A DNA stretch of 64,000 bases, taken from NCBI RefSeq assembly GCF_009931435.1, contig NZ_CP043414.1; one strand, written 5' to 3'. Numbering within the stretch: position 1 is the first letter of the stretch; each line of letters begins with the position of its first letter. This stretch comes from Escherichia coli (GTDB taxonomy: Bacteria > Pseudomonadota > Gammaproteobacteria > Enterobacterales > Enterobacteriaceae). This document shows, piece after piece, positions 10,461 to 10,676 of this stretch. The position numbers were made by a program, and so were the translations under genes. The notes below the pieces were generated by a model. The model did not search any database. It was not told where the DNA came from and saw only the letters and a program-made list of their open reading frames with translations.

Positions 10461-10676
10461 ATGCCGGATGCGACGCCTGTCGCGTCTTATCCGACCTGGG
10501 GGATTGCACATGTAGGGCGGATAAGGCGTTCACGCCGCATCCGCCAATGGCGCGGTGCAAGTGCCGGATGCGACGCTTGCCGCGTCTTATCCGACCTGGG
10601 GGATTACACATGTAGGGCGGATAAGGCGTTCACGCCGCATCCGGCAATTAATTACAACTAACAGGGAGTAAAGGCG
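10461..10676. repeat. BIME: tandem duplication of a ~100 bp unit, each with a convergent REP pair, between eutG and eutH
   Basis: tgccggatgcgacgc...cgcgtcttatccgacctgggggatt(g/a)cacatgtagggcggataaggcgttcacgccgcatccg occurs twice with period ~100 nt (from 10462 and 10562); classic REP sequence. Confidence 0.85.

Follow-up and report, generated by a model that had tools for sequence, protein, structure and literature searches.

A two-unit BIME-2 in the eutG-eutH spacer of the Escherichia coli eut operon, a probable modest modulator of the eut message

Introduction

The eut operon of Escherichia coli is tightly packed. Most neighboring genes overlap or sit at most 20 nt apart, and the larger gaps in the copy studied here are those of eutK-eutR (45 nt), eutM-eutN (106 nt), and eutG-eutH (216 nt), the last being the only one longer than 106 nt. 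The eutG-eutH gap is occupied by a repeated element, which raises the questions of what kind of element this is, how it varies at the site, and whether it influences the genes on either side. We addressed these questions in a 64,000-nt stretch of E. coli DNA (RefSeq assembly GCF_009931435.1, contig NZ_CP043414.1), hereafter called the window, for which a preliminary description had reported two near-identical units of about 100 bp, each holding a pair of REPs, between eutG and eutH.

Results and Discussion

Identity of the repeat

In the window, the eut operon is collinear with that of K-12 from eutQ to eutR. The products of eutJ, eutG, eutH, and eutA all match NCBIfam equivalog models at near-complete coverage, and the names of the other eut genes rest on collinearity with K-12. 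The eutA-eutB junction (13303-13315) is uninterrupted, and the 6.8-kb cryptic prophage CPZ-55, which splits these two genes in MG1655, is absent. Because eutG occupies 9273-10460 (equivalog, 889 bits) and eutH occupies 10677-11903 (equivalog, 873 bits), the 216-nt spacer between them coincides exactly with 10461-10676, and the equivalog matches on both sides confirmed the location inside the operon that had been reported. This gap may be the one place in the operon where a repeat can be tolerated.

The spacer holds two 100-bp units that are 94 to 95% identical, in agreement with the earlier report of near-identical units. Tandem Repeats Finder returned 10462-10648 with a period of 100, 1.9 copies, 95% matches, and a score of 346, and a repeat search aligned 10459-10548 with 10559-10648 at 94% identity across 90 nt. 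The order across the spacer is iZ2-Y-iZ2-Y, i.e., y and z2 REPs alternate in orientation. Compared with the consensus sequences of Nunvar et al. 2010 (Table 1; PMC2817692), both Y copies agree with the Y consensus (GTAGGacgGATAAGgCGttCACGcCGCATCcGGCA), an imperfect palindrome of about 35 nt with a 5' GTAG, and both inverted copies agree with the Z2 consensus (GTAGGcatGATAAGaCGcgcCAgCGtCGCATCaGGCA), which has a longer GACGC/GCGTC inner stem. Scored as reverse complements, both inverted copies reached 21 for Z2 versus 16 for Y, and they are identical to Z2 at 30 of 38 positions. The Y and Z2 core patterns were observed three and two times, respectively, in the window versus never in 100 dinucleotide-preserving shuffles, and thus they are not due to chance. 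The recognition of a BIME made of REP pairs was therefore correct, with two REPs per unit in opposite orientation; whether such a pair is called convergent, as it had been, depends on the naming convention. The features of the array are as follows.

10458-10460, plus strand: eutG stop codon TAA, the end of ORF 9273-10460 (EutG equivalog)
10462-10499, minus strand: Z2-type REP, copy 1, inverted relative to eut transcription (Z2 score, 21; Y score, 16)
10500-10511, no strand: linker of 12 nt, GGGATTGCACAT, between the GTAG-proximal ends (BIME-2 S position)
10512-10546, plus strand: Y-type REP, copy 1, 5' GTAG intact, equal to the Y consensus at 33 of 35 positions
10515-10596, plus strand: Y-linker-Z2 stretch scoring as naRNA4 (RF02564; 73.4 bits)
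10547-10561, no strand: inter-unit linker of 15 nt, ATGGCGCGGTGCAAG, between the GTAG-distal ends, from the Rfam naRNA4 alignment
10562-10599, minus strand: Z2-type REP, copy 2, inverted, aligning to the Z2 hairpin of the naRNA4 model
10600-10611, no strand: linker copy 2 of 12 nt, GGGATTACACAT
10612-10646, plus strand: Y-type REP, copy 2, GTAG intact, equal to the Y consensus at 34 of 35 positions
10647-10676, plus strand: unstructured 3' flank with the eutH ribosome-binding site, with no BIME pairing in the predicted fold

BIME-2 elements combine, by definition, z2 and y REPs with a short linker and, in the flank, an s, l, or r motif; they are repeated in tandem, and their copy number at one locus differs between strains (Ton-Hoang et al. 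2012; PMC3333891). The array in the window fits this definition in its z2 and y REPs, its tandem copies, and its strain-variable number of units. Its short GTAG-proximal linker and the second linker between units would correspond to those of known BIME-2 elements, from which it does not differ in kind. Besides, BIME-2 units at one locus stay very similar, according to the work of Gilson, Bachellier, and Hofnung as summarized in PMC3333891, and those in the window do likewise; unlike the typical element, its Z2 copies carry CCAG in place of GTAG and one stem mismatch. The array is extragenic, lying between the eutG stop and the eutH start, and belongs to a dispersed family: a 616-nt query including the BIME matched a median of 31 places per E. 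coli genome. Judged from its sequence, the eutG-eutH array is a textbook two-unit BIME-2, a member of a family long known.

BIME-1 (RIB/RIP) also contains two inverted REPs, one of which is Y. However, BIME-1 joins y to z1 through a long L linker that binds IHF and occurs in single copies, whereas the array in the window is tandem, has Z2 as the partner and a linker of 12 nt, and contains no IHF core motif (WATCAANNNNTTR or WATCARNNNNTTR) on either strand of the spacer; this assignment was rejected.

Another BIME, consisting of a single unit, lies elsewhere in the window at 61255-61346. In it, a linker of 18 nt joins an inverted Y REP to a Z2 REP, and the latter is identical to the Z2 consensus at 33 of 38 positions.

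Within the array, GTAG is present at 10512 and 10612 in the Y copies, and the GTAG-proximal ends of each REP pair face each other over the 12-nt linker. The 15-nt linker aligns, on the Rfam model, to the 'l' linker of naRNA4/REP325 with an insertion of 4 nt, by which it is longer than its REP325 counterpart. Neither Z2 copy has GTAG; both read CCAG (CTGG on the plus strand), CTAC is absent from the whole spacer, and both copies have the same single mismatch in the basal stem. CTAC is retained in the Z2 of most E. coli alleles. On these comparisons, the Z2 copies in the window are mutated Z2 and no different family.

The quoted difference between the units, CCTGTCGCG (10476-10484) versus CTTGCCGCG (10576-10584), is real and lies in the Z2 loop, which reads CUGUC in copy 1 and UUGCC in copy 2. 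Since both changes fall in the 5-nt loop of the hairpin, the stem is unaffected. Three further differences between the units were found at 10461/10561, 10506/10606, and 10544/10644. The first unit does not differ from its counterpart in E. coli 2017-02-2CC, a strain in which the second unit keeps the canonical CTAC; from this, unit 2 of the window looks like a mosaic arising from exchange between the two units.

The array of MG1655 (NC_000913.3, 2568108-2568323) shares with the window the site, the 216-nt spacer, the two units, and the junction at the eutG stop (TAA ATGCCGGATGCG), and the two arrays are about 92% identical. They differ in that CTAC, the complement of GTAG, is kept in both K-12 Z2 copies and lost in the window, and in the 3' flank (AATTAATTACAAC in the window versus AATAAATAACAAC in K-12). 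The array had been called tandemly duplicated. The tandem arrangement stands, whereas the implication of a special event does not, because multi-copy arrays are normal for BIME-2 and K-12 is also two-unit. Thus, the eutG-eutH BIME is already known in kind, its variation is known family behavior, and as a standard BIME-2 with the same array at the same place in K-12, it carries little weight as a discovery. Presumably, EcoCyc or GenBank annotates a REP element at this site. Our literature search returned no paper linking a REP with eutG, and the MG1655 RefSeq record lists no repeat feature at the eutG-eutH site.

Copy number among E. coli genomes

The two flanks were run as one joined query against 5,426 complete E. 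coli genomes, and the spacer length was read from the span of each match. A systematic sample, in which rows were drawn at even steps down the ranking, gave 59 informative genomes, and the unit counts were confirmed on fetched sequences for all classes but that of 416 nt.

Spacer of 116 nt: 1 unit, 24 genomes
Spacer of 216 nt: 2 units, 22 genomes
Spacer of 316 nt: 3 units, 4 genomes
Spacer of 416 nt: 4 units, 1 genome (unit count from the span alone)
Spacer of 515-516 nt: 5 units, 4 genomes
Spacer of 99 nt: decayed single unit (O157), 3 genomes
Spacer of 169 nt: different repeat, no REP, 1 genome

The suggestion that copy number varies between strains was thus verified, with none to five units in E. 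coli and up to about six in other Escherichia. In the 59-genome sample, the alleles group by identity rank, so that copy number looks lineage-associated and not hypervariable. Furthermore, private variants are common to the units of one array, which indicates local expansion or homogenization. In O157, the unit lacks the 5' arm of Z2, and its fold reaches only -23.7 kcal/mol. Such an allelic series, from none through one to five units, in an inducible operon important for gut colonization could serve as a natural test bed for the relation between REP copy number and intra-operon expression.

Several minor observations were made on these alleles. A decayed Y REP variant, GGATAAGGCTTCACGCAGCATCCGCTAAT, is common to E. 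coli O157:H7 (1701-1799 of fetched locus L005) and unit 3 of Escherichia sp. E1V33 (L012), which suggests that the allele is old or that the site has recombined. The 169-nt allele is another dispersed, G-rich repeat (GGGGAGAGGGTTAGGGTGAGGGG...) that occurs at a median of 6 places per genome, is present over at least 80% of its length in 382 of the 5,426 genomes, and gave no Rfam match; its carriers include E. coli MRSN346638 (L006, 1701-1869) and LF82 (L063, 48768-48936, at the eutG-eutH site). As for the origin of the window, the cys region (30000-34000, cysPTWA) shows 90 to 95% identity to 5,221 of 5,427 matching E. coli records, with a best value of 98.3%, and for eutG and eutH (9273-11903) no fetched E. 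coli locus exceeds 97.7% identity. Over the comparisons made, identity to most E. coli genomes was 90 to 95%, and the best values were 97.6 to 98.3%. With such low identity in both regions, the source looks like a divergent Escherichia lineage.

The same site in other genera

Species-representative genomes were scanned for EutH, and 50 loci were returned. In several Citrobacter species, the spacer is bare, with 27 nt and no palindrome, and spacers of 32 to 48 nt were found in Yokenella, Pluralibacter, Buttiauxella, Hafnia, and Morganella. One REP is present in Salmonella enterica subsp. diarizonae (67 nt) and C. sedlakii (60 nt), REP pairs (119 to 123 nt) in other Citrobacter and in Pseudocitrobacter, and Klebsiella-type REPs (170 to 216 nt) in Klebsiella. 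BIME-2 elements, in spacers of 116 to 578 nt, occur in Escherichia lineages and reach about six units outside E. coli. Most of the enterobacterial spacers compared retain the last 16 nt or so, in which the eutH ribosome-binding site (ACAGGGAGT) lies. On this comparison, the eutG-eutH site is a recurrent landing place for each genome's own REP type.

The bare spacer of those Citrobacter species means that the operon does not need the element. Together with the decay in O157 and the range of zero to five units in E. coli, it implies that any function of the array is dispensable, and this natural allele spread, as read from the genome sequences, argues against an essential role.

RNA folding and signals in the spacer

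Folding of the region, which had been proposed as a check, was carried out, and it agreed with REP hairpins. In operon-sense RNA, the single REPs fold at -16.5 to -20.9 kcal/mol each (Z2 copy 1, -16.5 kcal/mol, z of -3.1; Y copy 1, -20.9 kcal/mol, z of -4.9; Y copy 2, -16.5 kcal/mol). In an alternative fold, each unit forms one extended hairpin of 88 nt, at -42.1 and -48.5 kcal/mol. The 270-nt region as a whole reaches -112 kcal/mol versus -94.7 kcal/mol in shuffles (z = -3.55). The first REP stem starts 4 nt past the eutG stop, with 10465 as the first paired base in the fold of 10462-10499. At the other end, the eutH ribosome-binding site (GGGAG at 10664-10668, 8 nt ahead of the ATG at 10677) is unpaired with the array in the predicted fold.

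We considered whether the operon could be divided at the spacer, by an intrinsic terminator behind eutG, a promoter of its own for eutH, or both. It is indeed the longest gap in the operon, and RNA sequencing of LF82 gave 168 RPKM for eutG and 514 RPKM for eutH, i.e., three-fold more for eutH (PMC6379400), although LF82 carries the non-BIME 169-nt allele, so that these values do not bear on the BIME. The scans, however, found neither a hairpin followed by a T-run within 10461-10676 nor a sigma-70-like promoter anywhere in 9900-11200, the array included; the sole terminator-like matches in 9900-11200 belong to a weak palindrome inside eutH (10694-10712), and a terminator or promoter in the array was rejected. 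Besides, the spacers of 27 to 48 nt in other genera are compatible with a single transcription unit. An operon boundary at this site is thus very unlikely.

A single Rfam family, naRNA4 (RF02564), exceeded its gathering score in the region, with 73.4 bits versus a gathering score of 59.5 and the full 77-position model matched by 10515-10596 on the plus strand. Two-hairpin RNAs made of Y and Z2 have been reported to condense DNA together with HU (Qian et al. 2015; PMC4550694), and the match could accordingly be taken for an HU-binding small RNA with a role in nucleoid condensation. However, naRNA4 corresponds to a single Y-l-Z2 unit out of the six in REP325, the BIME-2 that separates yjdM from yjdN (PMC4550694), so that any BIME-2 scores and the match only relabels the unit. 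The nucleoid role is disputed even for the founding member, no promoter-like site was found in or near the array, and the eut operon is silent without induction. We rejected a separate small RNA gene and regard a naRNA4-like function as highly improbable.

An ATG-initiated ORF of 66 codons (10461-10661), whose ATG directly follows the eutG TAA, spans the array, and a small protein made from it was likewise weighed. The ORF consists wholly of REP sequence, its length shifts or the ORF vanishes with the number of units, and no gene is called there in any annotated genome examined. It was rejected as a gene, and the chance that it encodes a functional protein is minimal. For annotation, the practical consequence is that neither the 66-codon ORF nor the naRNA4 match inside it should be called a gene.

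Possible action at the DNA level

The array might act on DNA, as a strong gyrase binding and cleavage site that manages supercoiling in or beside the eut operon independently of transcription. BIME-2 elements are over-represented among in vivo gyrase cleavage sites, their y REPs are cut preferentially, and the cleavage signal rises when transcription is blocked (PMC6379681); the array in the window has two intact Y REPs. On the other hand, only a subset of BIME-2 elements is cleaved, the names eutG and eutH are absent from the Topo-Seq supplementary text of the same study (PMC6379681), and alleles without any BIME exist. The RepRanger supplement names neither gene. We consider this reading unlikely.

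Probable effect on the eut message

Because the array lies in an untranslated gap of a tightly packed 17-gene operon, it is transcribed within the eut mRNA. The best-studied functional analogue is REP325, which shares with the array the Y-linker-Z2 unit and an intra-operon site between co-oriented genes but has six units instead of two. In the yjdMN operon, REP325 stabilizes the upstream yjdM mRNA and attenuates yjdN transcription, partly in a Rho-dependent manner. Rho dependence was a property of the six-unit array only; constructs with one and two units showed none that was detectable, and attenuation by a two-unit array should therefore be weak. REPs also stall terminating ribosomes and lower the translation of the upstream gene, but only at a distance of at most 15 nt from its stop codon, according to the account in PMC12306157 of Liang, Rudd, and Deutscher 2015 (Mol Cell 58:431). 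On that account, the first stem in the window, 4 nt past the TAA, is in range.

Protein levels are available for W3110 (PMC11334477). With EutQ set at 100, the values were 27 for EutE, 7 for EutG, 37 for EutB, and 24 for EutC, the two-unit status of K-12 being read here from the MG1655 and BW25113 records and not from W3110 itself. As EutB and EutC, which are encoded downstream, exceed EutG, strong polarity is unlikely. The array had also been suggested to set the stoichiometry of the dehydrogenase versus the permease/lyase genes; this may be a reasonable idea, but the protein values and the natural spacer range of 27 to 578 nt argue indirectly against a strong effect. The low value of EutG is compatible with an effect of stop codon proximity, of which it is no proof.

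The array might also be a neutral passenger, i.e., a selfish or junk repeat that settled where the operon has its only permissive gap, without measurable influence on eut expression. This would agree with the wide range of alleles, which extend from 27 to 578 nt and hold no REP, one REP, REP pairs, one to about six units, or another repeat, as well as with the decayed unit of O157 and the lack of a downstream drop in the W3110 proteome. In addition, REP content tracks the REP type of the genus, being Klebsiella-type in Klebsiella and absent from Morganella and Hafnia. Nevertheless, structured REP arrays in transcribed gaps, such as REP325, have shown effects wherever they were tested. In the REP325 study, the median log ratio of expression, upstream gene over downstream gene, was 0.96 in tandem gene pairs with a REP versus -0.09 in controls. 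Moreover, the distance of the first stem from the stop codon is within the range that, in the account cited above, affects translation. Complete neutrality is possible but somewhat unlikely.

We favor as the probable reading that a canonical two-unit BIME-2 in the eut mRNA acts as an upstream stabilizer and a partial attenuator, with a net effect that is probably modest. The REP/BIME family of Escherichia is thought to have spread by a REP-associated transposase (RAYT, TnpA-REP), and arrays would then grow or shrink via recombination or slippage between units. In the eut RNA, the array would form four REP hairpins or else two extended hairpins of 88 nt. By analogy with BIMEs that have been studied, these hairpins may block 3'-to-5' exonucleases and so stabilize the upstream eutS-eutG message, and the structured untranslated gap may cause some hairpin- or Rho-dependent attenuation into eutHABCLKR. 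On the same analogy, the stem close to the eutG stop may hinder terminating ribosomes and lower the yield of EutG. The size of the effect may scale with copy number.

A bolder extension is that the copy-number series acts as a heritable, lineage-specific dial on the polarity between the two halves of the operon. The gene of the autoregulator, eutR, stands at the distal end of the operon, so such a dial would also set the gain of its positive feedback and, with it, the threshold of induction by ethanolamine. If this were true, the induction threshold would differ among gut lineages with the number of units. We regard this extension as quite unlikely.

Other features of the window

The eutM-eutN spacer (6628-6733), the second-longest gap of the operon, folds at -42.7 kcal/mol (z of -2.4). 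At 6635-6660 it has a terminator-like hairpin of 10 pairs, 6 of which are G-C, and a T-rich tail, TCTCTCCTTTTT, follows. In W3110, the protein values were 96 for EutM versus 1 for EutN (PMC11334477), and this hairpin could be an intra-operon attenuator behind the EutM/EutN ratio. Finally, the window contains two tRNA gene clusters, one of four genes on the minus strand (52636-53029) and one of two genes on the plus strand (55728-55915).
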